Origin: a virus
Lineage: Duplodnaviria > Caudoviricetes
IMG/VR virus record: IMGVR_UViG_3300048599_000711
Location: 1-43,481 of that record
DNA: 43,481 bases
Reading direction: 5' to 3' (one strand)
In this document: positions 3,199 through 43,481 of the stretch, one piece after another
How positions within the stretch are numbered: position 1 is the first letter of the stretch
Layout: each line of letters opens with the position of its first letter
Translations under genes and position numbers: made by a program
Notes under the pieces: generated by a model
Databases searched by the model: none
What the model was told of the DNA's origin: nothing
What the model saw: only the letters and a program-made list of their open reading frames with translations

Positions 3199-3404
3199 TG
3201 AATCAACAATTCGATGACCTAAAACAAACCTTCCAGAAAATTGCCTCGATGTCTCAAGGTGAGCGTTACGACCTGCTGAATGAATTGGCGAAGAAAGGTT
3301 TTGTGATCACGATCACCCTACAGACTGACGACGAAGGCGTTTTGCATGAATCAATCTTCTTCCAGACAAAAGAAGAAGTTGTGAATACCAGAACCGGTAA
3401 TTGA
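3198..3404 (+). CDS. Hypothetical protein
   Basis: 68-aa ORF coupled to the primase stop, with GGAG upstream. Confidence 0.6.
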   Translation: MNQQFDDLKQTFQKIASMSQGERYDLLNELAKKGFVITITLQTDDEGVLHESIFFQTKEEVVNTRTGN

Positions 3405-4355: not shown

Positions 4356-5293
4356 GCGATTTAGATCAATTGATCGGAACGATTGTGAGTGATGCGCAGA
4401 TCAGCACGGGAGCCCCGATTGAATGGATGCAAGCCAGGAATCTGGTTGCCCGGCCAACGCAATCTGAAACAAAACAGAAACACCAGGCGTGGACAGAAGA
4501 GGAGGAACAGTTTTACCTGGAGAACGCCGGCAAACTCTCTCTTGAAGATATTGCATCTGCCTTGGGACGGACAGAAAACGCTATCAAATGTCATTGGTTT
4601 AAGAAAGGACTGCCGCCGCCTACCAAACAACCGGATTACCTAACCACTCACCAGATCGCTGTTCTTTTGGGCGTTGATTCCCACAAGACTCCGACCTGGG
4701 TGGATCAAGGTATTCTGCCGGGGGCGAAAATCCCAGGATTCACACAACCGATCCGGCGAGTGAAGTGGATACACTTCAAAATGTGGCTGGTACGGCCAAC
4801 ATCCTGGGTCTATTTTGATGTGCAGAAAATCAAGAACGCTTCGCTCCGACGATTCGTTCAAGTCGCCCAGCAACGCTGGGGGGATGAATGGTGGACCACG
4901 CGCCAGGTTGCCGATTATCACGGGTGTTTACCTCAAGATATCAAACGGTTTATCAAGCGAGGAGAATTACCCGCTTTCCGTGCTATCGGAATGGGCGGAC
5001 GGGCGAAAGATCAGTATTGGGCCTACTGGTTTGTGAAGCGCTCAGATGCTCTGAATCTGAAGATTAAGCGGAAATCGAATCCCGCAGAAACATGGGAAAC
5101 AAAAGCATGGAGCCAGCGGGCGGATGATTTTATCCGCCGGATGAGAGCAGAGGGGAAGAAATATTCCGACATCGCTCGGATGATGAAATGGTCGGTCAAA
5201 CAGGTCGAATATCGCGCACTATGCATCTCAGACACAGGGAACTGGGCAAAACGAGCAAGGAGGAATGGGCGTGAAAACCAAAATGACTTATGA
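4352..5293 (+). CDS. Multi-HTH DNA-binding protein
   Basis: WTEEEEQF...IASALGRTENAI Myb/GcrA-like repeat, excisionase-like HTH segments (LTTHQIAVLLGV, WTTRQVADYHG); ATG overlaps the parB stop. Confidence 0.65.
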   Translation: MSDLDQLIGTIVSDAQISTGAPIEWMQARNLVARPTQSETKQKHQAWTEEEEQFYLENAGKLSLEDIASALGRTENAIKCHWFKKGLPPPTKQPDYLTTHQIAVLLGVDSHKTPTWVDQGILPGAKIPGFTQPIRRVKWIHFKMWLVRPTSWVYFDVQKIKNASLRRFVQVAQQRWGDEWWTTRQVADYHGCLPQDIKRFIKRGELPAFRAIGMGGRAKDQYWAYWFVKRSDALNLKIKRKSNPAETWETKAWSQRADDFIRRMRAEGKKYSDIARMMKWSVKQVEYRALCISDTGNWAKRARRNGRENQNDL

Positions 5294-5852
5294 GAAAGCA
5301 TTGAAACTGGCGGACGATTTCCGCACGGTGTTGGCGCCAGGGTGTGAACGGATTGAAATCGCCGGCAGCCTGCGGCGAGCGAAAGAAGAGGTTGGCGATA
5401 TTGAGTTGGTGGCAATACCCAAAGTCGAACCTGTGACCGGTCTATTCGGGGAAGCTGTGGCTCAACGGTCCATCCTGGATGAGATTATTTCGACTCATTA
5501 TGTCCTTCAGAAGGGTGACCAGAAATATAAGCAAATTGATCTTGGTGAGATCGTTTGTGATCTTTACATTGCCACACCAGAAACCTGGGGCGTGATTTAT
5601 CTCATCCGAACCGGCTGCGCGGAATTTGCCAAATGGATGGTGACCGAACGGCAAAAAGACGGCGCCCTGCCAAGTTTTTTAAAAGTCCATGAGGGACGAA
5701 TCTGGTCAAAGTCGCATCCTGGTTATGCGCTTCCCTCTCCGGAAGAGGAAGATGTTTTTACCATATACGGTCTTCAGTGGATTCCTCCAGAGGAGCGGAT
5801 TTGCGGCTTTTGGGGAGAATTGGGAAAGTTTTTGAAGAGGGGCACGAAATGA
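5283..5852 (+). CDS. Minimal DNA polymerase X/beta-family nucleotidyltransferase (palm-thumb)
   Basis: IAGSLRR...GDIELV, YLIRTG and EEEDVF...WIPPEER PolX motifs. Confidence 0.85.
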   Translation: MTYEKALKLADDFRTVLAPGCERIEIAGSLRRAKEEVGDIELVAIPKVEPVTGLFGEAVAQRSILDEIISTHYVLQKGDQKYKQIDLGEIVCDLYIATPETWGVIYLIRTGCAEFAKWMVTERQKDGALPSFLKVHEGRIWSKSHPGYALPSPEEEDVFTIYGLQWIPPEERICGFWGELGKFLKRGTK

Positions 5853-6178
5853 AAACAGAGGAGCGTATTTTGATTGGCGCGGAATCCATACTTCAGGTGC
5901 CAAGAACCGTCGCGGTTTGTCCTTATTGCGACGGGCAACTTACAGTTTATTTCGATGGGTTTGATCAACAAGATGATGGAACCTGGGCTGCTGCTTCTCT
6001 GAATGTTGAGTGCGAGACGGAACCAGCCGTTGAAAGTAAAAATTGGGACGACTGGTTCGCGTCGCACTCTGATATGCCCTATGTGTATCAATTACCGGTT
6101 GATGAGGAAATAAAAGCATGGATCAACAAGAATTTCATCTTTGAAATCGAGAATGAAACAGGGGACAAACGAAAATGA
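5849..6178 (+). CDS. Hypothetical protein (CPYC motif)
   Basis: ORF overlaps its neighbours in ATGA fashion. Confidence 0.6.
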   Translation: MKTEERILIGAESILQVPRTVAVCPYCDGQLTVYFDGFDQQDDGTWAAASLNVECETEPAVESKNWDDWFASHSDMPYVYQLPVDEEIKAWINKNFIFEIENETGDKRK

Positions 6179-6744
6179 GTACACCAGACAGCATTATTTC
6201 ACGGCTTCGGGCAATCAAAAATTTGATGTCTGATCCCGCGGCTACCTCCGGGGAGAGAGAAAACGCTTCAGAATTACTCCAAACCCTTTTAAAGAAGTAT
6301 AGCCTTACCGAAAAAGATCTTCTCAGTGAAGAAACTGATGTAATCAAGTTTGATGTTTCAGATGAATATGAGCGGAAGCTTCTCGTTCAGATCGTTTGTC
6401 AAGTTGTTGGAGTTGGGAAAATTACATGCTGGTCAAGAAATCCGTATTCTGGACGAACAGCCAAAAATCATATGTGGTTCGAATTAACGAAAGTGCAGAG
6501 TAAGGAGGTTACTACCCTTTATACACATTATCGAAAAGATCTTCAGAAAGGACTGATGAAATTTTTTAAAGCTTTCGTTCAAGCAAATAAGATTTTCCCA
6601 GCAGAGGCAGACAATGCTGAAAGTGCAATGCTTTCACCGGACGAAATCCAAGAGCTCTTGGAAATTCTTGCTTTGACGAAGTCCATAAAACCCAATCCAT
6701 TACCCCAAAAATATTCTCTCCTAGAGGATGGAAAAAATGAATAG
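6175..6744 (+). CDS. Phage protein with DUF2786-like N-terminus
   Basis: IISRLRAIKNL...GERENA...LLKKY pattern. Confidence 0.6.
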   Translation: MSTPDSIISRLRAIKNLMSDPAATSGERENASELLQTLLKKYSLTEKDLLSEETDVIKFDVSDEYERKLLVQIVCQVVGVGKITCWSRNPYSGRTAKNHMWFELTKVQSKEVTTLYTHYRKDLQKGLMKFFKAFVQANKIFPAEADNAESAMLSPDEIQELLEILALTKSIKPNPLPQKYSLLEDGKNE

Positions 6745-7000
6745 CTCATTCGAAGAATCAATTTGCTCTTATAAGATAGGCGATATGGTCCAATGGACTC
6801 ACCGTCGAGATCGCGGGCGCACAATCCAATATTTTGCCATGGAAGGCAAAATACTAGAGATCAACGGAAATCTAGCGGTAATCAAACGAACGGGATCCGG
6901 AAGGAAATATACTGTTGCGCTGACGCGGTTACGGTCGATCGATGAGGTCAACGAGTTGACTGAGTGGGTATTGGGCAAAAAGAGCAGAACCGATAAGTAA
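6737..7000 (+). CDS. Hypothetical SH3-like small protein
   Basis: YKIGDMVQW...GKILEI pattern; coupled ORF. Confidence 0.55.
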   Translation: MNSSFEESICSYKIGDMVQWTHRRDRGRTIQYFAMEGKILEINGNLAVIKRTGSGRKYTVALTRLRSIDEVNELTEWVLGKKSRTDK

Positions 7001-7009
7001 CCTTATCGG
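6990..7009. repeat. Dif-like palindrome copy 3
   Basis: CCGATAA GTAACC TTATCGG overlapping a stop codon. Confidence 0.9.
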
Positions 7010-7030
7010 CATAACCAAGAGGGGAAAAAA

Positions 7031-7702
7031 GGCTATTCGGAATAGTGTGTGGAATTCCCCCTTCGGAATAGTTGTACATCAAGGTCAAAAAGCGGAATAA
7101 CGTGTGGAACTAACAGGAGTTTGATATGGATACCTCTGATGGTGTTTTGAGCAAGCAAGGGCTTTATCTGAAGTACATCATTCAGCATACTGATGGTCAT
7201 CCGGTTGACCCCAACGCGCTATATTTCGTGCTTCGCTACGATGAGGACACCGAGTGGAGCCGGATTGGGCGCGAATCGCTTTGGGCAATGTGCAAGCGCA
7301 TTGAGAAAGAAGCCCCATCTCTGGTGGCTGACATTCGGGCGAAAGTCAGCCAGGTAGGCTTGTGGCGCATTTTTTCCAATGATGTTGACACGTTTGTCGC
7401 TATGGATATGGACGATCTGCCGGATGTTTACCAAATGCACTACGGGGAAACTATGACCAGCATGGACGAAGAGTTAGAGAACTGGTCAGAGATTGATCCC
7501 GACAAGCTAATGACCATCTGGTGTGAAGGAGATGATTACAACCCGGAAGACCCTCAGTATCCACCAGAAGCGGAAGTGACCCGCAAGGAAGGCGACTGCC
7601 GGGTGTATATCAAGGCTACCGGCCGCGCCTGGGCAAAGGCAAATGGACGCGGCTTTCTATGCTCAACGGAGTATTGAATTCCACACGAAAATCCGAATAA
7701 CC
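7031..7702. mobile_element. Inverted-repeat-bounded single-gene cassette A
   Basis: Left GGCTATTCGGAATAGTGTGTGGAATTC vs right reverse complement GGTTATTCGGATTTTCGTGTGGAATTC (22/27 match); GAAAAAA immediately outside both ends. Confidence 0.6.
7126..7677 (+). CDS. Hypothetical protein (cargo of cassette A)
   Basis: CAGGAG RBS; stop codon overlaps the right inverted repeat. Confidence 0.75.
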   Translation: MDTSDGVLSKQGLYLKYIIQHTDGHPVDPNALYFVLRYDEDTEWSRIGRESLWAMCKRIEKEAPSLVADIRAKVSQVGLWRIFSNDVDTFVAMDMDDLPDVYQMHYGETMTSMDEELENWSEIDPDKLMTIWCEGDDYNPEDPQYPPEAEVTRKEGDCRVYIKATGRAWAKANGRGFLCSTEY

Positions 7703-7741
7703 GAAAAAAGAATCCCCGGATTGACAATTGAAGGACACTCT

Positions 7742-9004
7742 ATGAAATGGAAAGAACTTGAAATTGAACAGGCGAAAAGCTTGGATTATAAGCTTCAAAT
7801 AGCTTGCAGCATTATTGCCCAAGCATTCAATACAGCTCAACGACCAGCACTAGCCTACAGCGGTGGCAAAGATAGTCATGTGCTGGGCGACATGATTCGC
7901 CGCTTCTTCCCTGACCAGTTCACCCGTTTGGCCGTGATCTTTGGCAACACCGGGGTTGAGTTTCCCGAAAGCGTAAAGTTTGCGCGCAAAACCGGACAGG
8001 AATGGAATTGTGAGTTCCACGAGGCTCGTCCTGGTAAAACTAGTGAGCCCGGTTTCAAATATGCTGGCCAACGTCGGATCTGGGAACGGTTAATCGCAGA
8101 TGGAACTATCTCGGAAGCGCTTAAGCCAGATGGAAAGCTAAAAAGTACCGAAGCTTTAGAGCGCATGTGCCCTGCTAATTTGCGTACAGAGATGGAACAC
8201 GAACGGCTGATATGGCCTGCTGGTACCATGATGAGTTATTGGTGGTGTGCTGACCAATACGGTTGGCCTCTCCTTGGTAAATCCTGGTCACTGCTCGACG
8301 CACGTCGAATCAATATCGATACGTTTATGCGCTTCTCTAAAAGTGAATCCAGAAATCAAAAGCTGCTCAATTATTACGCAATTCTACGCCATGCCAAAAT
8401 CAGTCAGCATTGCTGTAAGGTACTGAAGAAAGAGCCATCTGAGCGTGTACAAGAAGCTATAGGGGTAGATCTAATCTTCAAAGGCCTGATGGCTTCAGAG
8501 AGCCGGTCGCGCACGAAAAACTTCTTAACACGCGGCTATCTGTTCGAAGGTCGAAGGAGAGGATATCTACACGGTGACCCATTCTTTCACTGCCAGCCCT
8601 TAGCAATTTGGACAGATGAGGATATCTGGGCTTATATCAAGCGATTCAGTGTTCCTTACTCGCCGTTATATGACATTACCTACATAACAGAAGATGGACA
8701 TAGGCAGTGTATAAAGCGCAATGGTTGTTTGGGCTGTGGAACAGATTTCGGTTTTAAAAGCAACCATCTATCAATTCTGCGGCAGACGCACCGAACAGCA
8801 TGGCGTACCATCATGCGCGCCGGAATGGGGCAAGAGATCCGCAATCTACAACGTGCCATGAAAGCTGGCCAGATGAACATCTTTGACACGGTGGACACAA
8901 ATGAATTGATTGACATACAACCTTGCGTATTCGACGATATAGACGGGCTGGGCGGAGCAAGTTCGCCAGATGGATTGATATACGACCCTGAGACTGATGT
9001 TTAA
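7742..9004 (+). CDS. PAPS reductase-family (PP-loop) protein
   Basis: AYSGGKDS, NTGVEFPE, CCKVLKKEP, PLAIWTDEDIW, RNGCLGC; start chosen at the ATG after GAAGGA. Confidence 0.88.
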   Translation: MKWKELEIEQAKSLDYKLQIACSIIAQAFNTAQRPALAYSGGKDSHVLGDMIRRFFPDQFTRLAVIFGNTGVEFPESVKFARKTGQEWNCEFHEARPGKTSEPGFKYAGQRRIWERLIADGTISEALKPDGKLKSTEALERMCPANLRTEMEHERLIWPAGTMMSYWWCADQYGWPLLGKSWSLLDARRINIDTFMRFSKSESRNQKLLNYYAILRHAKISQHCCKVLKKEPSERVQEAIGVDLIFKGLMASESRSRTKNFLTRGYLFEGRRRGYLHGDPFFHCQPLAIWTDEDIWAYIKRFSVPYSPLYDITYITEDGHRQCIKRNGCLGCGTDFGFKSNHLSILRQTHRTAWRTIMRAGMGQEIRNLQRAMKAGQMNIFDTVDTNELIDIQPCVFDDIDGLGGASSPDGLIYDPETDV

Positions 9005-9051
9005 TCTGAACCCGAAACCAATAAATAGTTATCAACGGAGGAAATACTGGA

Positions 9052-9531
9052 ATGAAAGCTCTCACACTCACACAACCGTGGGCTTCATTGATTGCAATTG
9101 GAGCAAAACAAATCGAAACACGCAGTTGGTTCACAAAGTATCGTGGTCCCTTAGCAATTCATGCGGCGAAAAGCTTTCCACATTGGGCGCAAGAATTTTG
9201 TCTTGATGAACCCTTCTTTTCCGCATTCATAAAAGCAGGCATCGTTCACGAAGGAAATTGGATTACTGATCTCCCCCTGGGGGAAGTCGTAGCCACCTGC
9301 AATCTCTTTGATTGTGTAGAAATTCCTCCAATGGGATTATTTAGCCATAAAAGAAAGACCATTCGCCATGGAAACACCACCTTCCTTGTTCCACCCAAAG
9401 CTCCAGAACTTACTTTTGGGAATTATGATGTTGGCCGTTTTGCATGGTTATTAACAGATATCTCTTCTTTCGTGGAACCGAAACAAGCAAAAGGCGCTCA
9501 AGGATTATGGGAATGGATTCCTCCAACCTAA
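9052..9531 (+). CDS. ASCH domain protein
   Basis: MKALTLTQPWASLIAIGAKQIETRSW...YRGPLAIHA...KGAQGLWEW. Confidence 0.9.
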   Translation: MKALTLTQPWASLIAIGAKQIETRSWFTKYRGPLAIHAAKSFPHWAQEFCLDEPFFSAFIKAGIVHEGNWITDLPLGEVVATCNLFDCVEIPPMGLFSHKRKTIRHGNTTFLVPPKAPELTFGNYDVGRFAWLLTDISSFVEPKQAKGAQGLWEWIPPT

Positions 9532-9734
9532 CTTACCCCTATCTATGGAGAGTCAGGACCCGGTTGCCAGATCGATTTGGTCAGCGATGCCGGGTCCTGG
9601 TCCGCGGCGGAATGAATTCTTGCCTGGTGGAATTCGAAGATGGATATCAGGTCATCACCAGCCGAAATTATCTTCGAAAGGCAAAAACGGAGCGCAAGGT
9701 TTTATCAGGTATGGAGGTAAAGAAAGATGTTTAA
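9513..9734 (+). CDS. Small phage hypothetical protein
   Basis: GQRCRVLVRGGMNSCLVEFEDG...TSRN; overlaps both neighbours. Confidence 0.6.
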   Translation: MDSSNLTYPYLWRVRTRLPDRFGQRCRVLVRGGMNSCLVEFEDGYQVITSRNYLRKAKTERKVLSGMEVKKDV

Positions 9735-10413
9735 ATATTTCGGTATTTATATCCAGGAGCATCGGGATCGAGCACGCGCTTGGTGGTCTCTCAGTAAGGG
9801 TCACGCGGATCGGCAGGCTGCCGAAAGCCTCTTTATTTTGAATCGGTTGGCTAAAGGGAGAGGTGTACCAGCAGATATCGTTTACCAATTGAAGAACCAG
9901 GCCGTTCGTCTGTTTTACCAGAAAGGATACTGCACCCGGGTGACAAAAAGCGTTCAAGAGATGGAATGCTGGCACACGCAACGTTATCTTGACGGTGAAA
10001 CGGATTATTGCCCAAAATGCGATAACACGGGCGTTTATCGCCGCTATGCACTGTATTCTTTCGTTTTTTATATCGATGGGAAGCGGTTTAACTGGCATCA
10101 ACCAGAGGGGATGGTGACCTGGCCTGTGATGCTCAATGAGGGTATTGAGATTTACAGCGGTGAACGATCCAACGCAGTGGGTGCAAAGCAAGACGTGAAC
10201 CGGGCTGTCTGGGTGGTTTATCAATGGTTGAGGCAGAACGAAGTAGCGGGAGAGGATTTACCCAGACAGCGAAACCTGCTTCAGGCGCTTCAAATCGATC
10301 TGATTGTGATCCGCGAAGGATGGATTTACCAGATACACCAATGGGCGGAATATCGGAATGGGCCGGTGGCCAGGCGAATCCGTGAGTGGGAGAGGGAAAG
10401 GATACCGTTTTAA
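9727..10413 (+). CDS. Hypothetical protein
   Basis: GGAGG RBS, CPKC motif, F..HQP motif. Confidence 0.7.
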   Translation: MFKYFGIYIQEHRDRARAWWSLSKGHADRQAAESLFILNRLAKGRGVPADIVYQLKNQAVRLFYQKGYCTRVTKSVQEMECWHTQRYLDGETDYCPKCDNTGVYRRYALYSFVFYIDGKRFNWHQPEGMVTWPVMLNEGIEIYSGERSNAVGAKQDVNRAVWVVYQWLRQNEVAGEDLPRQRNLLQALQIDLIVIREGWIYQIHQWAEYRNGPVARRIREWERERIPF

Positions 10414-10507
10414 AGGGTTTCCAGATTCCTTGATTGAAGCCTGAAAACTGATCGTAAACCGGCGAGATATAAAAACGGATTAGCTGATTGAAAAGATAGG
10501 ATATAAG

Positions 10508-10696
10508 ATGGTAAATGATGCTGAATTTGATGGCATGGTAGATTACGCGTACTGGTGCATGGACCAGGCAGGATGGAAGTCAGTCGAGTGCCCAAATTGT
10601 GGATGCCCTCGTTATCAGAAAGGCCACATCCTAGAACAATGCCCGGAATGCGGAGACGAAGAGACTGACCTCTCAATGATAAGGCCTGTGCCATGA
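10508..10696 (+). CDS. Small zinc-ribbon protein
   Basis: CPNC...CPEC. Confidence 0.55.
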   Translation: MVNDAEFDGMVDYAYWCMDQAGWKSVECPNCGCPRYQKGHILEQCPECGDEETDLSMIRPVP

Positions 10697-10702
10697 AAAA
10701 AA

Positions 10703-11274
10703 GCCTATTCGGAATAACGTGTGGAAAGGAATGATTGAAAATGTCACTTGACGTATATCTTGAAATGCCAATCAGCCATGAGGCCGAACCAAAGATTTTT
10801 ATTCGTCGCAATGGCGCGAATGTGGAGATAACCCGCGCCGAATGGGATGCGCTTTACCCTGAGCGTGAACCACTCGTAACCAATCACGGCGAATCCAACG
10901 AGGTCTTTTGGGCGAATATTACCCATAATCTCGGTGGAATGGCAGACGCCGCCGGCATCTATCATGCCTTATGGAGACCTGATGAGGTTGGGTTCTCCAA
11001 AACCCAACATCTAATTGGGCCGTTACAGGAAGGTTTGAAGCGTCTAAAAGAGAATCCTGGGGAATTCCGCAAGTACAACCCCACCAATGGATGGGGAACA
11101 TACGAGGATTTGATTGATTTTGCTGAACGGTATCTGGCTGCATGTGAGGAGTTTCCGGATGCTGATGTACATGTATCGAGATAGACAAACAAACCAGTAG
11201 AGAGCAATCTACATGAGGAGATTAATGCGTGAAACCAAACATCAACGGATTTCCACACGAAAATCCGAATAGCC
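10703..11274. mobile_element. Inverted-repeat-bounded single-gene cassette B
   Basis: Left GCCTATTCGGAATAACGTGTGGAAA vs right reverse complement GGCTATTCGGATTTTCGTGTGGAAA (21/25 match); A6-7 tracts outside both ends; same ends as cassette A. Confidence 0.6.
10741..11184 (+). CDS. Phage hypothetical protein (cargo of cassette B)
   Basis: MSLDVYL...ANITHNLGGMA...NPTNGWGTYE, typical phage protein pattern. Confidence 0.75.
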   Translation: MSLDVYLEMPISHEAEPKIFIRRNGANVEITRAEWDALYPEREPLVTNHGESNEVFWANITHNLGGMADAAGIYHALWRPDEVGFSKTQHLIGPLQEGLKRLKENPGEFRKYNPTNGWGTYEDLIDFAERYLAACEEFPDADVHVSR

Positions 11275-11391
11275 GAAAAAATGCTGGCTTTTCAAGAAAA
11301 TCACTTGGGAAAGCCTCGTTTTAAACCTCGTTATAATATTTTATAAGCATTCCTAAGATTGCTGAAAACTGTTTCTCTGGAGAGGAAAAAT

Positions 11392-11628
11392 ATGAATCTG
11401 TATCGTCTAAACGTCAGTTGGTTTGGAAAGGAACACCTTGGACAGTTCATGACTCTTGAAGAGTATTCCCGACTTCGAGATGAGTCCGGTAATACAGCGC
11501 CAATATCACCTGATGTACCTGATGCTCCGGCTTATTTTAATGATGGATCGGGAGTCGAAATTCTTACCTCTGCTGATGTTTTATGGAAAGAAGCCCATCC
11601 ATCTTTCCATAACAATTCATCTTGTTAA
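11392..11628 (+). CDS. Hypothetical protein
   Basis: GGAGAGGA RBS; AT-rich upstream region containing TATAAT. Confidence 0.6.
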   Translation: MNLYRLNVSWFGKEHLGQFMTLEEYSRLRDESGNTAPISPDVPDAPAYFNDGSGVEILTSADVLWKEAHPSFHNNSSC

Positions 11629-11702
11629 CAGTTATATAAAAAATCAGCATGAATTATCCTAATAAAGGAAAAATGCCATAGTTACCCAGGTCAATTGTTA
11701 TT

Positions 11703-11722
11703 CCGATAACCTTTCTTATCGG
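11703..11722. repeat. Dif-like palindrome copy 4
   Basis: CCGATAA CCTTTC TTATCGG (TCCG/CGGA extension). Confidence 0.9.
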
Positions 11723-11741
11723 ACCTAAATAACTCATTCAC

Positions 11742-11778
11742 CCGGATGTTTTCACCCTTACCAGATGAGAACATCCGG
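11742..11778. terminator. Hairpin between convergent genes
   Basis: CCGGATGTTTTCA...TGAGAACATCCGG followed by T-rich sequence. Confidence 0.55.
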
Positions 11779-11786
11779 ATTTGTAT

Positions 11787-12059
11787 TTATTTACCCTCAG
11801 CCAAACGATTTTGAAGGACTTGTAGCTGTTCTCGTAAGCGGATCGCCTCTTTGTGCTCTTCCAGGAGCATCGCCAGGAGAAATGTCTCCATTGGCAAAGA
11901 ATTCGCAGCATAGGCAGCCGCAGCTAGGTGATTACGAGCCTCTACAAATAATTCATCCAGCGCGAGCTGGTCCTGGCGGCGTAATGCGCGACGAAAGCGA
12001 CCGAAGGCAGCCTCCTCTTCATGAAATGATTGTGTGATTGATGGCATTGTACGTCCCAT
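11787..12059 (-). CDS. Small helical protein resembling the MGRT-family (arCOG07300-like) partner of PolB2 damage-response operons
   Basis: MGRTMPS...FRRALRRQDQLALDELF...LPMETFLLAMLLE; strong RBS AAGGAGG on the minus strand. Confidence 0.6.
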   Translation of the reverse strand: MGRTMPSITQSFHEEEAAFGRFRRALRRQDQLALDELFVEARNHLAAAAYAANSLPMETFLLAMLLEEHKEAIRLREQLQVLQNRLAEGK

Positions 12060-12213
12060 TGATTATTCCTCCTTTCTGGAAAGTATGACATAGAGGCATC
12101 TTGATGCCCATTCTCCATTCAGGGGATGAACGGGGGATATGATGGGTTCCCCCATAGGAGGACCCATATTTAGGGCCAGAGAAGTAAATAGCCCGAAGAT
12201 CTGCATCATCCTA

Positions 12214-12248
12214 GAACGCTTGTTTCCCGATTCGAACCGTGATATGAT
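12214..12248 (+). promoter_or_regulatory. Sigma70-like promoter for the late operon with an overlapping LexA-like box
   Basis: TTGTTT-17 nt-TATGAT with extended TG; GAACGCTTGTTT resembles GAAC-N4-GTTC. Confidence 0.45.
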
Positions 12249-12317
12249 GAATCGGGTAATTTATTATTACCTAAATTAATATTTTATTTCTACTAATATT
12301 TAATTTAGGAGGTCCTA

Positions 12318-12746
12318 ATGATCGTCCCAGTTGTTGCCCAATATGTTGCTCATGGAGCTGCCGGCATCCAACAGGGGTTTCAGTGGTCATCCCTGGAACA
12401 GTATCTCCCTATCCTGTTCGGGCCGCAGGTTGTTGCGCTGCTGGCGCTGATTGCTGCGCAGGTGCTGCTGGCGGTTGCCCTGGCGCTGAAGAAGGAAATC
12501 TTCGATTGGAAGCAGCTCCCCAACTTCTACAAGACGATGGTCTTGCCCCTGGTAATGGGTTGGGTCGCTTGCTCCATCCTGGCCAAGTTTGCGACGCCGG
12601 CCGTTTTAGGTCCCGAATATGGGAACCTGGCAGCCGAAAGCATTAGCGGCATCGCCTACCTGGCCATCGTCGCGTCTCTGGGATCTCGGATCATCACCAC
12701 CGCAAAAGAACTGTACGGTGAGATGACCTCGCCGTTTGGGGGGTAA
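12318..12746 (+). CDS. Putative holin
   Basis: About three hydrophobic helices, AGGAGG RBS, first gene of the late operon. Confidence 0.65.
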   Translation: MIVPVVAQYVAHGAAGIQQGFQWSSLEQYLPILFGPQVVALLALIAAQVLLAVALALKKEIFDWKQLPNFYKTMVLPLVMGWVACSILAKFATPAVLGPEYGNLAAESISGIAYLAIVASLGSRIITTAKELYGEMTSPFGG

Positions 12747-12749
12747 TTT

Positions 12750-13184
12750 ATGCCAGGTGTGACGATCCTGGATGTTATTGGCGCCATCGGCGGCTTAGGG
12801 GGAGCCGCCGCATTTTTATCCGTGCTGATGGACCGGCGGCTGCGGCGAGCCCAGGCGCGCAAGACCGAGGCAGAGGTAGCAGGGACGATTGTCGACTCTT
12901 CCGGCGACCTGGTCGATCAGTATCGCAAATTGGCAGAGGAATCACGCTGCGAAGTAGCCGAGCTTAAGAAGACTCTCAACCAGCATTCCGGTCAGATCGG
13001 GCTGCTCAACCGGACGGTCGAGCGCTACGCTCAGCGCATCACCTACCTGATGGGCGGCATTTCCCAACTCATCCAGCAGATTGTTGGTCTCAACGCCACG
13101 CCCATCTGGACACCAGACCGCTGGACCGGCGATGAGGAGCTGCACGACGGCCCCTTCCCTCCCCGTACCCCACCCAGCAGTTAA
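12750..13184 (+). CDS. Membrane-anchored coiled-coil protein (lysis accessory-like)
   Basis: N-terminal TM segment followed by coiled coil, adjacent to the holin. Confidence 0.55.
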   Translation: MPGVTILDVIGAIGGLGGAAAFLSVLMDRRLRRAQARKTEAEVAGTIVDSSGDLVDQYRKLAEESRCEVAELKKTLNQHSGQIGLLNRTVERYAQRITYLMGGISQLIQQIVGLNATPIWTPDRWTGDEELHDGPFPPRTPPSS

Positions 13185-13237
13185 AAGAGATTCCTTAAAA
13201 GGCGAAACTCCGATTTTTCCGATTTTTGAGGTTATTC

Positions 13238-18304: not shown

Positions 18305-18348
18305 AACCTAGATATACAAGCTTGTCCAAAAAAGGGAGTAATTATCGT

Positions 18349-19506
18349 ATGAAAGCTGAACTGATTATTAAGCTTGTAGAGGCACATAGTATTGGTAATG
18401 AACGCTTGTTCGAGGGGGCGCTTTTAGAATTAGCTAATGACGAAGAGCGGAAAGGTAATTTTTCGTTAGCAACCCTTTTGAAAAGGGCATATTCATCAGA
18501 TAGAAAACCTATTGCATCCCTTTCAGATAGCCCTTTATCTTCCACTATGACATTTTTGCCACAAAGCATTCCATCAATTCCAAAAGATAAAGACAGCACT
18601 TTGGAATTGGTTGAAATTATGCAATCAAATGTAGGATTATCAGATGTGGCTTTATCTGAAAAAAATTTTAAAGCTTTAAGCCAAATAATTAAGGAACAAA
18701 AAAACGCGAAAGAATTGTTGGTTAAAGGCATAACTCCAACAAATAGAGTCCTTTTTTGCGGTCCTCCAGGATGTGGAAAAAGTCTTACAGCAAATGCTTT
18801 AGCTGGTGAATTGAATATTCCTATTGCTTATGTAAAACTCGACGGTTTAGTTTCTTCATATTTGGGTCAAACTGGAGCAAATATTCGAAAAATCTTTGAG
18901 TTTGTTAAAAACAAACGGATTTTACTCTTTCTTGATGAATTTGACGCCATTGCAAAAATGAGGGATGATTCTCATGAATTAGGTGAATTAAAACGAGTAG
19001 TCACTACCTTACTTCAAAATCTTGACGCAATGCCTGCCAACGTTTTTTTAGTAGCAGCTACAAATCATCATCATTTATTAGATCCTGCTATTTGGAGACG
19101 TTTCGATATTTCCATTTTGATGGAACTACCAGATAAAGTACAAAGGCAGCAAATAATTAACAAATTTATCAATGACCATCTTGGAGGTAATTTTCTAAAT
19201 AGTAACTTATTATCAGTACTCACTAATGGTATGAGTGGTGCCCAGGTATGCAGTTTCATGCAATCCTTAGTTAAGCACTCCATTATGAATCGCACTGACA
19301 TAGACAACATTTCTATTGATGAAATAGCTGATGTATGGTTGCAGCAATCAACACTCTTTATTAGCGATGACAAAAAAGATTATATGAAAGCTATATCTGA
19401 ACTCCATTTGAATGGGGTTCCTATTCGAACTCTTGAAAAAATTACCGGAATTCCTAAATCCACTTTAAACTACCGACTAAAGAAGGAGGTTAATGCAAAT
19501 GAATGA
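18349..19506 (+). CDS. AAA+ ATPase, IetA-like, with C-terminal HTH
   Basis: GPPGCGKS, LFLDEFDA, AATNH...LDPAIWRRFD; coupled to an S8 protease; AT-rich. Confidence 0.88.
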   Translation: MKAELIIKLVEAHSIGNERLFEGALLELANDEERKGNFSLATLLKRAYSSDRKPIASLSDSPLSSTMTFLPQSIPSIPKDKDSTLELVEIMQSNVGLSDVALSEKNFKALSQIIKEQKNAKELLVKGITPTNRVLFCGPPGCGKSLTANALAGELNIPIAYVKLDGLVSSYLGQTGANIRKIFEFVKNKRILLFLDEFDAIAKMRDDSHELGELKRVVTTLLQNLDAMPANVFLVAATNHHHLLDPAIWRRFDISILMELPDKVQRQQIINKFINDHLGGNFLNSNLLSVLTNGMSGAQVCSFMQSLVKHSIMNRTDIDNISIDEIADVWLQQSTLFISDDKKDYMKAISELHLNGVPIRTLEKITGIPKSTLNYRLKKEVNANE

Positions 19507-21709
19507 GAATAGAAAACAACATCTTTGGATACCTGATGAGGAAATTAATCAAGTACCCAAAACGCCTACTTCAAGAAATAAACCTCGTGATGAAGTTTTT
19601 TCTGAACATGGCCGAAAGTTGAGTACAAGCCTACAAACCATCAAAGAAATAATTGAGGAAACTATTGAGGATAATTCACTAGCAGATAGTAACTTATATA
19701 TATTTAGAGTAGAGTTACCGGAAGGAGAAAAGGTCCAGTATAAAAAAGATATACTCGAAAAAAATGGTATGAAACTCCATTTGGTAAATGATGAAAGAAA
19801 CGCCGTTGTTTCCACAACAAAGGGAAAGTTTCAAATGCTCAAAAACAGAATCGATGCTTACACCAAAAATGGAGAAAGAAAAACATACTTTGACTACATT
19901 GGAAATTTTCTTCCTTTTATAGGAATCGAAAAGAATTCATCAGAATTAAGAAAAATAGTATATTTACAACAAGCCCCAGAAAACATTGATGTTCAGTTAA
20001 TGTTTGTACCAAATTTAGATATTGAAACTTATGACATTGTCATAAAAAAAGTGATCTCGAAAATAAGACAACATAATGGCCATTTACAAGCAGAACCATA
20101 TTATCTTTCAGACCATACGCCTGTAATTAGAGCCATTATTCCATCCTCAATGTTGGCTAGATACGAAAACGATCCAGCAATTTACAGAATTGAAGAAACC
20201 CATTTTTTTAATGCAGGGACAGATATTACCAACAATTTTTCAGCATATTCATATTTTTTAGATAATGAGATCGACATTGATTCTTTGCCAATTGTAGCGG
20301 TGCTTGATTCTGGAATTAATTTTGTCTCTCCATTAGATTCGTTAATAATGGAACATTGGTTACCACCTATGTCTTCCGGTGGAAATTGTGAACATGGGAC
20401 AGAAGTAGCAAGCCGGGTCGTTTTTAACTATTTAGGTGACCAATTAAGAAATAATAAATTAACTCCAAGAGCGAGAGTCATAGACTGTAATATTCTTGAC
20501 GGGGCTGTTCCAGAAAATGAATTCATCAGTAGAATACAAAAAGCAGTAGAGAGCTTTAAGGATGAAGCAAAGGTTTTTAATTTATCAGCTAACGCAAACA
20601 GCCCAATCGATGGTAGTGAAATAAGTATTATTGGTTATGAACTCGATGTATTGCAGTTAAACAATAAGGTTCAATTTGTCGTATCAGCTGGTAATCATAA
20701 TCTATGGAGTGTGGAACCAAGTATTGAAGAAATTTTGGATGATGATGACTCTCAAATATCTGCCCCTGCTGATTCTATGTTATCAATAGTAGTAGGATCT
20801 GTCGTAGGAGAAGACCATGTTGGTAGTCTATCTGAAAAAAATATTATTGCGCCATATAGCAGAAGAGGCCCAGGTTTTGCAGGTTTTACTAAGCCAGATA
20901 TAACTGCCTATGGCGGAACAGTAGTTATTAATGGAAATGGTGAACAAATTCCTATTGATGATTACTCACTGGTTTTGACCAGAGATGGTAATTTTATCCC
21001 TGATGCAGGAACAAGCTTCACAGCTCCTATCGTTGCTGGCGATTTGGCTGATATTTTAAGCATTACACCAGAAAACAATATACTACTTGCAAAAGCATTG
21101 CTATATCATAATGCAAAGCCTATTTGGGAAGAGGACAATATTGAGGATGAGGAATTAGCATTTGCTCATAATTTATATGGGAAAGGTCTTTCCTCCGTTA
21201 CAGATAGTAAATACTCTTCCCCATCACGGGTTACATTTGTGAGAACTGGTACATTAAATCGCCTTACAAAAGAACGTGTAAAGATCTATATGCCGCCGAT
21301 TTTGGCAGCACAAACAGGTCGTAATGTTGCTAGAGTATCAGTTACCTGTTTGTCTTTGCCACCAGTAGATAGAACTAAAGGAAGTCAGTATCTTGGCGCT
21401 TATGTACGTGCATCATTAAAAAAATCCCATCCAGATGGCAAACTTTTACCTGTTGAACCAAAAACAAGTGAAGGTAGAAAAAAATGGGATGTATGCCATC
21501 AATTTTCGAGAACCTTTTCCCAATTTCACGCTGGCGATTGGCAAGTTTGGCTTGAGTTGTTTTCACGTTGGGATGATCAAGATATTGATGTCCCTTATGC
21601 TCTTGTAGTTACAATAGAAGATATAAGTAAAACTTTAGATGTATATAGTGAAATTGAGGCACTAAACAGATATAGAGCTCTTAACACAATCAGGCTAAGA
21701 GTAGATTAA
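19499..21709 (+). CDS. S8 subtilisin-like serine protease, IetS-like
   Basis: Catalytic VAVLDSG, HGTEVAS and GTSFTAP motifs, SAGN oxyanion motif; no signal peptide. Confidence 0.9.
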   Translation: MNENRKQHLWIPDEEINQVPKTPTSRNKPRDEVFSEHGRKLSTSLQTIKEIIEETIEDNSLADSNLYIFRVELPEGEKVQYKKDILEKNGMKLHLVNDERNAVVSTTKGKFQMLKNRIDAYTKNGERKTYFDYIGNFLPFIGIEKNSSELRKIVYLQQAPENIDVQLMFVPNLDIETYDIVIKKVISKIRQHNGHLQAEPYYLSDHTPVIRAIIPSSMLARYENDPAIYRIEETHFFNAGTDITNNFSAYSYFLDNEIDIDSLPIVAVLDSGINFVSPLDSLIMEHWLPPMSSGGNCEHGTEVASRVVFNYLGDQLRNNKLTPRARVIDCNILDGAVPENEFISRIQKAVESFKDEAKVFNLSANANSPIDGSEISIIGYELDVLQLNNKVQFVVSAGNHNLWSVEPSIEEILDDDDSQISAPADSMLSIVVGSVVGEDHVGSLSEKNIIAPYSRRGPGFAGFTKPDITAYGGTVVINGNGEQIPIDDYSLVLTRDGNFIPDAGTSFTAPIVAGDLADILSITPENNILLAKALLYHNAKPIWEEDNIEDEELAFAHNLYGKGLSSVTDSKYSSPSRVTFVRTGTLNRLTKERVKIYMPPILAAQTGRNVARVSVTCLSLPPVDRTKGSQYLGAYVRASLKKSHPDGKLLPVEPKTSEGRKKWDVCHQFSRTFSQFHAGDWQVWLELFSRWDDQDIDVPYALVVTIEDISKTLDVYSEIEALNRYRALNTIRLRVD

Positions 21710-21785: not shown

Positions 21786-21866
21786 ACAACCCTTCGGGGA
21801 TATCAACACGGTTTTCCCGGAAGTACCGCCCGGCGACTCGAATTGAGCCGCCGGGCGTTTTTTATT
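21786..21866 (+). ncRNA. Structured leader RNA with intrinsic terminator, copy 1
   Basis: CCC-TTCG-GGG hairpin, CGGT...CCGGAAGTACCG, stem CGCCCGGCG...CGCCGGGCG plus T6; paralog at 25736. Confidence 0.6.
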
Positions 21867-24269: not shown

Positions 24270-24289
24270 CCGATAAGAAGGATTATCGG
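24270..24289. repeat. Dif-like palindrome copy 7
   Basis: CCGATAA GAAGGA TTATCGG at the left edge of the AT-rich insertion. Confidence 0.9.
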
Positions 24290-24403
24290 AACAAAAAGTT
24301 TTCCCTAAAAAACCCCTCTTCTTTTCAGGATAAAAAAGTTATTAAGTGTCATAATAAATTTATTCAAACAGTTAATTCAATAAAATGGAAAATGGAGGTA
24401 GCT

Positions 24404-25681
24404 ATGGAATACAAGAAACTTTGGGAAGATGATAGTAACCGGCGTAAAGATGCTCAAGAAATTATTTCTTATTTACTTCATGAATGTAGTCAACCTTCCC
24501 ATACTAACAGTGTAAAAGAAAATTTTTCAGTTTCAGAATTAATTTTATTGAGCAAGGAAAAAAAGTTATCAAATGATCAAATATATAAAATTATCTTCGA
24601 TATGATTGACAATAATTTGTCCAAAATAGATGATTTTGAAATACTTTATTCTCAAGAATGCGTCCAGGAATCCTCAGAAAGTGATTCTTCAAAAACTTAT
24701 TGGAAATTTTATCTTCATTATAGCATTTCTAATTTACCCCAAAATTTTGAAGATATAAAATTTCATTTCTTAGGGAACGATTTTTCTTTTGTTAGTGCAA
24801 ACACTGCTTTCAATTGCTTAAGCATAGAAAGCAAAGATAACTTTCTTAAAAATAAAAATGTTTACAAAACTGGTGGTATAGAATTTAATGATAATTTAAA
24901 TTCGGCTGTTTATTTCATCTTTACAGAAAATGGATATACAAAAGAAGAAGCATGGGAAAAAGTAAATTATTCATTTAGAGGTTTCAGAGGGGCTATAGAA
25001 TTCTTAACTCCATTTGAGCCCGAATACTTTTATTTTTCTTCTGATATTCCGAAAACTTTTTCCAGAAATGGAATTCCAAATCCAAAATGGATGTTTGTTG
25101 AACCAATAGGTAATATAAATAGGTTTACAGGAACTACAGGATGTATAAAAGGTAATATTGATAACCGGTTCATTGGCTCTATAACGGAAAATTTCTTTTT
25201 TTTAGAAAATCGTCCCTCACAAAAATCTATTCAAAATCTTATTTCTGATTGTCTTAATTTGTATTCACAAGCAGCTGAAGCTAGTTCACTAGAAGATTAT
25301 TTTTTAACCTTATGGCAAATCGCTGAAAAAATTACTCTTTCAAAAGACTTTTCTGGAAAAACCGACGATGTGAGAAAGAGATTATCGTTTTTATGCAGCG
25401 AAATAAGTTTGGTTGGTTCGGGCTTTAAAGAAACTCTAAAGGATATTGCTGAAAAACGTAATAATTTAGTTCATCAAGGACTCGTACAAATAAATCAAAA
25501 CGATAATTACTTTCTACGAATTCTTTGTGATAAAGCTCTCAAATGGGTAATAAGTAGACAAGACTTAATTCCATCAAAGTTGACCTTATCAAAAATCTTC
25601 GAATATTCTAGTCGAGGCGATGAGGATAAAGTAGCAATTAAAGAGGCAATTAAGTTTTTTGATGCGCATAAAAAAGCATAA
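24404..25681 (+). CDS. HEPN-domain protein (ApeA-like), putative anti-phage RNase
   Basis: FLTLWQIAEKI helix and RNNLVH (Rx4H) motif; very AT-rich; GGAGG RBS. Confidence 0.7.
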   Translation: MEYKKLWEDDSNRRKDAQEIISYLLHECSQPSHTNSVKENFSVSELILLSKEKKLSNDQIYKIIFDMIDNNLSKIDDFEILYSQECVQESSESDSSKTYWKFYLHYSISNLPQNFEDIKFHFLGNDFSFVSANTAFNCLSIESKDNFLKNKNVYKTGGIEFNDNLNSAVYFIFTENGYTKEEAWEKVNYSFRGFRGAIEFLTPFEPEYFYFSSDIPKTFSRNGIPNPKWMFVEPIGNINRFTGTTGCIKGNIDNRFIGSITENFFFLENRPSQKSIQNLISDCLNLYSQAAEASSLEDYFLTLWQIAEKITLSKDFSGKTDDVRKRLSFLCSEISLVGSGFKETLKDIAEKRNNLVHQGLVQINQNDNYFLRILCDKALKWVISRQDLIPSKLTLSKIFEYSSRGDEDKVAIKEAIKFFDAHKKA

Positions 25682-25735: not shown

Positions 25736-25814
25736 CAACCCTTCGGGGGATATAGATCTCGGTCATGCCGGAAAGTACCGCCCGGCGGCTCGCAATGAGC
25801 CGCCGGGCGGTTTT
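25736..25814 (+). ncRNA. Structured leader RNA with intrinsic terminator, copy 2
   Basis: CCC-TTCG-GGG, CGGT...CCGGAAAGTACCG, perfect stem CCGCCCGGCGGCTC/GAGCCGCCGGGCGG plus TTTT. Confidence 0.6.
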
Positions 25815-27638: not shown

Positions 27639-27658
27639 CCGATAATCACCGTTATCGG
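27639..27658. repeat. Dif-like palindrome copy 8
   Basis: CCGATAA TCACCG TTATCGG. Confidence 0.9.
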
Positions 27659-42548: not shown

Positions 42549-43481
42549 TTACAATTTCCAATTGTCCACCGGGCTGGCGATCCGATGACCGCGCTGGAGA
42601 TCCGTGTTAGCCAGGTCCAGGTATGTGCGCACCATGTCCATGGAGGTGTGCCCCAACATCCGCTGAAGGGTGTAAGCATCCCCGCCATTCCGCAGGTAGG
42701 TAATCGCGAAGGTGTGCCGGAAGCGATGCGGATGGGTATCCTGCACGCCGGCTCTTTTACCGGCAGCCACCAGTAATTTCAGCAGCTGCCCACGGTCCAT
42801 CGCTCGCCCTTGTGATGTGACAAACAGCGGATTGTTCACCGGCTCGCTTTTTCGGGTGACCAGGTACTTAAACACTGCCTGCCCGGTCCGCGCAGAAAAC
42901 GGAATGATCCGTTCTTTGTCCCCTTTTCCGAAAGGCTTGATGTAATAATTGCGCAGATCCATATCCGCGATTTTCAGCCCGCAAATTTCGGACGCCCGCA
43001 TGCCTGTGTCCAGCAGGAGCAGAACGATTGCTTTGTTGCGGTCGGCATCCTTCAGTTTGTGGCGAGACGCTCGTTTGCCTGGCCGGCAGTAGGTCCGGGT
43101 ATAAACCAGGGCGTCCAGGATACGCTTCACGTCATCCTCTGTGAACGGAACGATGACCCGCTTCTCTGGATCCGGCGGTTCGACCTGGTGAACGATGTGC
43201 TCCGCAGCATAGTGGAACTTAACCGCCCAGGTCCACAGCGCAGCCAGACCGGTGTGGTAGTTCAAACAGGTTTTCTTGGAAACGGTTTGCGCCGCCAGGA
43301 ACCCTTCAATCTGCGTATGGGTGATTTTGGACAGGGGAAGATCTTGCTTCAGGTAATCAGCGAATTTCCGGAAGGTATTGAGGTAATCCGCCACGGTATG
43401 TTCGCTGAGATGCCTGGCTTTCAGATTCAAGGTAAAACCCGCTACCGCTTCCGAAAATGTGAGGTCAATGATCGTGTCCAT
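42549..43481 (-). CDS. Tyrosine recombinase/integrase, Xer-like
   Basis: TGMRASE (R), GKGDKER (K), HPHRFRH, LGH, VRTY catalytic motifs; 310 aa with no obvious arm-binding domain. Confidence 0.93.
   Translation of the reverse strand: MDTIIDLTFSEAVAGFTLNLKARHLSEHTVADYLNTFRKFADYLKQDLPLSKITHTQIEGFLAAQTVSKKTCLNYHTGLAALWTWAVKFHYAAEHIVHQVEPPDPEKRVIVPFTEDDVKRILDALVYTRTYCRPGKRASRHKLKDADRNKAIVLLLLDTGMRASEICGLKIADMDLRNYYIKPFGKGDKERIIPFSARTGQAVFKYLVTRKSEPVNNPLFVTSQGRAMDRGQLLKLLVAAGKRAGVQDTHPHRFRHTFAITYLRNGGDAYTLQRMLGHTSMDMVRTYLDLANTDLQRGHRIASPVDNWKL

Follow-up and report, generated by a model that had tools for sequence, protein, structure and literature searches.

Two transposase-less single-gene cassettes with ISL3-type ends, probably mobilized in trans, in a provirus of a probable Anaerolineae host

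Homologous and illegitimate recombination are the routes usually invoked for the movement of phage accessory genes. Genes without a transposase of their own are known to be carried between the ends of an insertion sequence (IS), as in MIC231 of Bacillus cereus, a mobile insertion cassette (MIC) with the ends of IS231 from the IS4 family. In pdif modules and integron cassettes, the recombination site stays at the empty locus and there is no target duplication. Here, we describe two gene cassettes, A and B, in a 43,481-nucleotide stretch of DNA (hereafter the window) that is the whole of IMG/VR virus record IMGVR_UViG_3300048599_000711 (Duplodnaviria; Caudoviricetes), and we compare their ends with those of ISL3-family elements. 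MICs and miniature transposable elements with inverted repeats (MITEs), the latter of about 30-300 bp, are described as being mobilized in trans, and ISPpu12a as a member of the ISL3 family that carries passenger genes (PMC4133298). ISPpu12 has 24-bp imperfect repeats, generates 8-bp duplications and forms composite transposons (PMC3735179). ISL3 elements have been called replicative (PMC13216065), and solo TnpB genes have been reported between the ends of DDE transposons, in a paper whose main text does not name ISL3 (PMC10691335).

A and B are very probably non-autonomous, ISL3-ended mobile insertion cassettes, which would have been inserted separately by a transposase supplied in trans from an intact element. 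The motif TATTCGGA-N5-GTGTGGAA has four exact matches in the window, at 7034 (+), 7699 (-), 10706 (+) and 11271 (-), which form two inward-facing pairs; the spacer is of 5 nt, as there are no matches in the window with a 6-nt spacer. A fifth copy, with three mismatches, is found at 7089 (+), and none of 100 shuffles reached five copies (mean 0.37). As the preliminary description of this DNA had noted, each pair encloses one open reading frame (ORF) unrelated to the other. The two ORFs match different PHROG families. Cassette A (7031-7702, 672 bp) is flanked by GGAAAAAA and GAAAAAAG, with an exact 7-bp duplication, GAAAAAA, whose left copy (7024-7030) is identical to the right one (7703-7709). 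Cassette B (10703-11274, 572 bp) is flanked by GAAAAAAA (10695-10702) and GAAAAAAT (11275-11282), which match at 7/8 positions. These flanks had been likened at the outset to a target duplication or an A-tract target, of which the former is shown for relatives and probable for A and B. The flank of A would be either a 7-bp duplication or an 8-bp duplication of GAAAAAAG minus one G at the junction. Both insertions would be intergenic, with no reading frame disrupted; the cassettes are 78-82% coding and present in one copy each in the record.

The four ends display the organization of ISL3 ends. The left terminal inverted repeat of A (7031-7054, +) is 24 bp long, of ISL3 type, and aligns with the ends of three elements that encode an ISL3 transposase (loci L012 and L021, and the Bcep22 IS discussed below). 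The fifth motif copy corresponds to an inner direct repeat (7086-7109, +), 55 bp inside this end, which the preliminary description omits. Inner direct copies 45-56 bp in at the cargo end are also found in L012, L016, L021, L181 and Bcep22 and are typical for the ISL3-ended family; that of A is likely a second transposase-binding site. The right repeat of A (7679-7702, -) starts with GGT, not the usual GGC or GGG. The left repeat of B (10703-10726, +), which starts with GCC and is directly followed by a Shine-Dalgarno-like AGGA, is identical at 23/24 positions to the transposase-side end of the autonomous elements L012 and L038. The right end of B is a module of about 55 bp (11220-11274, -) that includes the 24-bp terminal repeat (11251-11274) and recurs on metagenome contigs joined to other internal sequence, once over 11220-11278 with one difference and once over 11220-11271 with five. 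On a metagenome contig from one study, the left 26 bp and the right 52 bp of B surround 963 other letters, with CTATGGTG on both sides. Compared with each other, A and B are 94% identical over 34 nt at their right ends and 90% over 30 nt at their left ends, flanking A-tracts counted in.

Motif scans returned 38 viral loci, at least 125 metagenome loci and at least 126 genome loci, the named hosts among the matches listed being Bacillaceae, Acinetobacter, rhizobia, Caballeronia, Gemmataceae and two Anaerolineae metagenome-assembled genomes (MAGs). Five viral elements flanked by the motif (L009, L012, L016, L021 and L038) encode DDE_Tnp_ISL3, zinc-ribbon and helix-turn-helix domains. DDE_Tnp_ISL3 also lies between or against the ends in L067, and L012 scores above the cut-off of NCBIfam NF033550. 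Every transposase seen between or against these ends is of the ISL3 family, and the partner of the ends is identified as an ISL3-family DDE transposase. A tblastn search with the L012 transposase matched 57 GenBank phage records. In intact ISL3 elements, the cargo lies upstream of the transposase, with the inner direct motif copy at the cargo end. In Burkholderia phage Bcep22 (GenBank AY349011), the annotation supplied by the depositors places 24-bp IS boundaries on either side of two hypothetical genes and a transposase; this IS, which has two passenger genes and a GTTCTTCT duplication, aligns with A and B at its boundaries and inner repeat. The corresponding junctions of BcepIL02 and BcepMigl are without the element, and too diverged for a single target copy to be read. 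Autonomous elements with the same ends, which the preliminary description had suggested looking for, are thus at hand.

Direct evidence of transposition comes from relatives of A and B. Across 58 end pairings, A and B included, there are 32 perfect 8-bp duplications, 5 perfect 7-bp duplications, 4 matches at 7/8 positions and 17 pairings with none. A perfect 7-8-bp duplication is thus seen in approximately 37 of 58 pairings, compared with 14 of 3306 cross-pairs of left and right flanks taken from different elements. An exact 7-bp duplication like that of A is found in four other elements. The AT content is 77% in the duplications and 51% in the loci, and the six inner positions of the duplications are A or T. 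In Vibrio phage K256 (OZ195684), a methyltransferase-plus-ISL3 element of 2484 bp lies between two copies of GAAAAGAG, and Vibrio phage K303 (OZ195676) offers the exact empty site, with a single GAAAAGAG, no element and no end motif. The same element (99.9%) lies at another site in K251 g2 (OZ195767), between two copies of GAAAAAAG, which is the 8-mer of the right flank of A. Compared with K251 g2, K242-type phages (K242, OZ195722) are shorter by 2492 bp, the difference expected of an empty site, this being a comparison of lengths only. Transposase-less elements also occur at several sites. When 72 elements were grouped into 61 clusters, nine had several members, and in four of the nine a transposase-less element occupies two sites, each with its own perfect duplication that differs from the other (L075/L090, 99.8% identical; L007/L018, 97.6%; L073/L093, 95.4%; L042/L079, 88.9%). 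Among the remaining multi-member clusters, one has its members at the same site, and four have at most one perfectly duplicated member. The proposal that such units are mobile insertion cassettes is supported by these transposase-less relatives at different duplicated sites and by the ends shared with ISL3 elements. The methyltransferase-plus-ISL3 element itself is found in 17 records, at different sites in two co-sampled Vibrio phage lineages, and is absent from their siblings, a distribution from which we conclude that a transposon recently carried a methyltransferase from phage to phage.

How transposase-less units arise can be followed in the lineage of L012. The L012 and L038 transposases are 98% identical, and their cargo is different. 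In L114, the 201-bp left end is the same, the cargo is another, and of the transposase only the last 31 codons are left. In L050, 124 bp of left end and transposase start run directly into the final 48 bp of the element. The 201-bp left end, common to L012, L038, L114 and L323, contains TTGACA-16/17-TATAAT, and just past it the sequences of L012, L038 and L114 diverge into different cargo. Some transposase-less versions in the family arose by internal deletion of the transposase, with exchange of the cargo behind a shared left end. A scan for consensus promoters in 6800-11500 gave three sites against 7.4 expected, none of them at the cassette ends; an end-borne promoter is therefore shown only for the L012 lineage. 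This lineage also occurs in genome G160, on one contig, and in a MAG of the Anaerolineaceae, and its transposase-side end, 23/24 identical to the left end of B, makes it a candidate donor.

By analogy, we propose a sequence of events for A and B. An intact, cargo-carrying ISL3 element would have lost its transposase and acquired an ordinary phage gene between its ends, possibly by recombination between shared ends or by transposition using one end and a nearby look-alike. The transposase of an intact relative (for example, of the lineage that occurs both on phage contigs and in genomes of Anaerolineaceae) would then have bound both ends and inserted the unit into an intergenic G-A6 tract. The altered terminal bases and the imperfect duplication of B suggest that B is now decaying in place. 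Among 116 ends, the terminal triplet is GGC in 91, GGG in 15, GGT in two, including the right end of A, and GCC in one, the left end of B being the sole such end. Three of the four ends of A and B start with GG (GGC, GGT and GGC), the exception being this left end. Given these non-consensus bases, A and B may be inactive.

Several observations weigh against this account. Neither an empty site nor a second copy of A or B was found in three contig sets (three runs from one study and at most two samples, covering only parts of the region), in 401 genomes or in the searches of viral loci, so that the empty sites anticipated in the preliminary description exist for a relative, K303 against K256, and not for A or B themselves. 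In agreement with the statement made at the outset that the window has no transposase, the ISL3 transposase domain (PF01610) is absent from the record, although this is a provirus judged to be 63% complete. A and B match autonomous elements over about 24-36 bp only, the duplication of A is of 7 bp and that of B imperfect, and 17 of the 58 pairings show no duplication. The figure of 37/58 is approximate, since the pairing rule, when it had a choice of right ends, favored one that yielded a duplication, one insertion was counted twice (L050/L074), and a strict filter excluded some elements with variant ends; three doubtful pairings were also retained. Finally, all four flanks are the same G-A6 tract, and the duplications alone therefore do not prove two separate events.

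This last point leaves room for a composite, in which the left end of A and the right end of B would have carried everything between them (7031-11274, 4244 bp), including the PAPS-reductase-like gene and its neighbors, in one event. [quoted passage not shown] The outer flanks do share GAAAAAA, the two cassettes point the same way and are nearly identical at their right ends, a related phage contig is without 5840-9040, and composite movement has been published for ISPpu12 (PMC3735179). However, the same tract is present at the inner junctions, which is what two independent insertions would give; A-tracts are frequent targets within the family (e.g., GAAAAAAT, GAAAAAAG and AAAAAAAT), and GAAAAAA occurs 25 times in the window. 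Moreover, the related phage retains 9040-9607, which lies inside the supposed composite. We consider a single event improbable. In that phage, 5840-9040 is replaced by 195 other letters, hence there was no precise excision, and the loss of 3.6 kb between like ends that had been envisaged was not seen in the three contig sets and is a geometric possibility only.

Two further readings would dispense with transposition. The ends consist of two conserved halves around a 5-nt variable spacer, the cargo is tightly packed, and there is a tyrosine integrase in the window (42549-43481), all of which might suit sites for a site-specific recombinase such as this prophage integrase, be they pdif-like, integron-like or shufflon sites. 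That the ends are recombination sites which shuffle genes, an option raised early on, is nevertheless unsupported, since flanks differ from one insertion to another and are duplicated, and the empty site in K303 holds a single target and no motif. Intact members, in addition, hold an ISL3 DDE transposase inside their ends and no recombinase, and we regard this reading as very unlikely. Least probable of all is a role of the motifs in binding a transcription regulator, with their position on either side of two genes due to chance. The motif does lie just upstream of the cargo start in several elements, and transposase binding at the ends might also affect expression of the cargo, but the motifs come in inverted pairs with target duplications on the outside. 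Furthermore, of 401 genomes in the family of the likely host, just two contain the exact pattern, in each case at an element with an ISL3 transposase. Separately inserted, ISL3-ended cassettes thus remain the explanation that we favor for A and B.

The cargo of A (7126-7677, +) is a phage-type protein of 183 amino acids with no assigned function, whose stop codon ends one base before the right repeat. Its residues 9-78 give a weak N-terminal match to phrog_9572 (E 1.6e-7), and it has five other homologs with 46-74% identity. The protein apparently consists of two domains, as its halves match separate unnamed viral clusters by predicted structure (Atlas). A related viral locus was not found for it with either the single protein or a six-sequence alignment. 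The cargo of B (10741-11184, +), 147 amino acids long, belongs to a large phage protein family (phrog_4019, E 6.7e-15; 3601 matches). Neither protein has a match in Pfam, NCBIfam or PADLOC. Among 80 viral loci with homologs of the B cargo, none is bracketed by ISL3-type ends and 17 have scattered motif matches with three or four mismatches; B is thus an ordinary phage gene that got packaged. The closest locus for this cargo, L296 (1-600; G215:C325), has 80% DNA identity, a degenerate left motif just upstream and no right end, and would be either a decayed cassette or a native gene.

The search for other cargo behind the same ends, also proposed in the preliminary description, was productive. 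The transposase-less cassette at L020 (1042-1936) has a perfect 8-bp duplication and carries AcrIF10 with an Aca2-like gene. Those at L007 (710-1469) and L018 (2998-3757), also transposase-less and perfectly duplicated over 8 bp, carry AcrIF11 with a 60-residue partner; a unit of the same length, 760 bp, is found in Acinetobacter parvus (L175, 4001-4760), the likeness being by length alone. No full copy of the two anti-CRISPR cassettes was found in the GenBank phage set. Other relatives carry DNA methyltransferases, Mom-like, NADAR and PAPS-reductase-like genes, toxin-antitoxin pairs and TnpB, and many cargo ORFs in the family are without any match. TnpB is the main ORF between ISL3-type ends in L051, L054, L060, L081, L089, L091, L111 and L213 (with cluster mates L086 and L105), perfect duplications being present in L060, L086, L089, L091, L105 and L213; the proteins of L054 and L091 are unusually long (704 and 773 residues). 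In Bacillaceae, the cargo is of host type (MerR and MarR regulators, ABC transporters and NUDIX), so the family is not restricted to phages. Two arrangements are more complex. At L009 (1613-5973), a methyltransferase cassette is directly followed by an ISL3 transposase unit, with stacked ends, and at L010 (58-826), one left end is combined with two tandem right ends, each behind its own ORF.

As for the rest of the window (G000 in our set), it encodes a primase, a ParB-like protein and terminase genes, with the tyrosine integrase at its right end. The region 5200-13200 has matches in 121 of 401 genomes from the family of an Anaerolineaceae MAG, from which we infer that the host is probably an Anaerolineae bacterium; the same DNA search found no syntenic relative of the region in these genomes. 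Nearly all the matches in the 121 genomes fall in a 90-residue ORF (11787-12059, -) without a Pfam match, which would be either a conserved gene of the host that the prophage carries or one commonly shared with it. The palindrome CCGATAA-N6-9-TTATCGG has five exact copies (971-991, 6990-7009, 11703-11722, 24270-24289 and 27639-27658), against none in 100 shuffles, one of them (6990-7009) a little to the left of cassette A. Degenerate copies with mismatches occur near 3390, 15526, 21714, 36063 and 42472. The copies are mostly in intergenic DNA, and the palindrome is likely an operator of a phage or host repressor. Amid the head genes lies a low-GC pair of IetA/IetS type (18322-21709), an AAA ATPase and an S8 peptidase (PADLOC E 5e-100 and 1e-70; under cut-off for NCBIfam IteA/IteS), which by these matches is a prophage-borne anti-phage system. 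Two GC-rich hairpins of 47 nt, 87% identical (21816-21862 and 25768-25814), each follow one of two low-GC islands, the first after the IetA/IetS-type pair and the second after an orphan gene (24392-25681) whose 429-residue product has no match in Pfam, NCBIfam or PADLOC.

For the window alone, the significance is rather modest: two genes without assigned function in probably ageing cassettes. More broadly, ISL3-ended cassettes would represent a third route for phage accessory genes, namely transposition of single genes by a borrowed ISL3 transposase. The relatives provide sequence evidence for each step, from the cargo-carrying intact element through deletion of the transposase and exchange of the cargo to the new insertion and the empty site. 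Since the same ends carry the AcrIF10-Aca2 and AcrIF11 operons, this route bears on the spread of anti-CRISPR genes, and the short end motif together with the duplication offers a search handle for uncharacterized phage genes under selection to move. We also put forward, as a reading less likely than not, that one ISL3 subgroup is a cross-phylum phage gene-shuttle, whose standard ends supply a promoter and a ribosome-binding site, enclose one phage gene each time, lose the transposase and pass from phage to unrelated phage, with the uncharacterized cargo, that of A and B included, being new counter-defense genes. As the identifiable cargo includes anti-CRISPRs, methyltransferases, Mom-like and NADAR genes, the remaining cargo would then be a list of counter-defense candidates and, if this is true, such genes could be mined by the end motif alone.

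Among titles and abstract openings, in a literature search with most subscription journals outside its scope, none describes ISL3-ended, transposase-less phage cassettes. Three known classes were considered for A and B and rejected. They are not autonomous IS, the record having no DDE_Tnp_ISL3 and the cargo no Pfam match; nor MITEs, which are multicopy and without an intact passenger gene, A and B being of 572 and 672 bp, largely coding and in single copy; nor pdif modules or integron cassettes, given the motif-free empty site of K303 and the variable duplications. ISPpu12, likened here by its description only, and the Bcep22 IS have 24-bp imperfect inverted ends, as A and B do, and generate 8-bp duplications; unlike A and B, they encode their own transposase. 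Several relatives of A and B carry TnpB as the only cargo between the same ends, as in solo TnpB elements, whereas A and B are without TnpB. TIMEs and their composites (TIME-COMP) are likewise described as non-autonomous ends that move unrelated DNA in trans into AT-rich targets, but with 38-bp Tn3 ends and 5-6-bp duplications, and it takes two complete miniature elements to build one of their composites (PMC4133298). In A and B, by contrast, one gene is tightly enclosed by single ends. With IS-type ends that match those of an autonomous IS, one passenger gene each and no transposase, A and B correspond in structure to MICs, in which IS ends and a target duplication surround passenger genes that are moved in trans. 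They differ from described MICs in that their ends are of ISL3 type rather than of IS231 or Tn3, their replicon is a prophage and their cargo is a phage gene.

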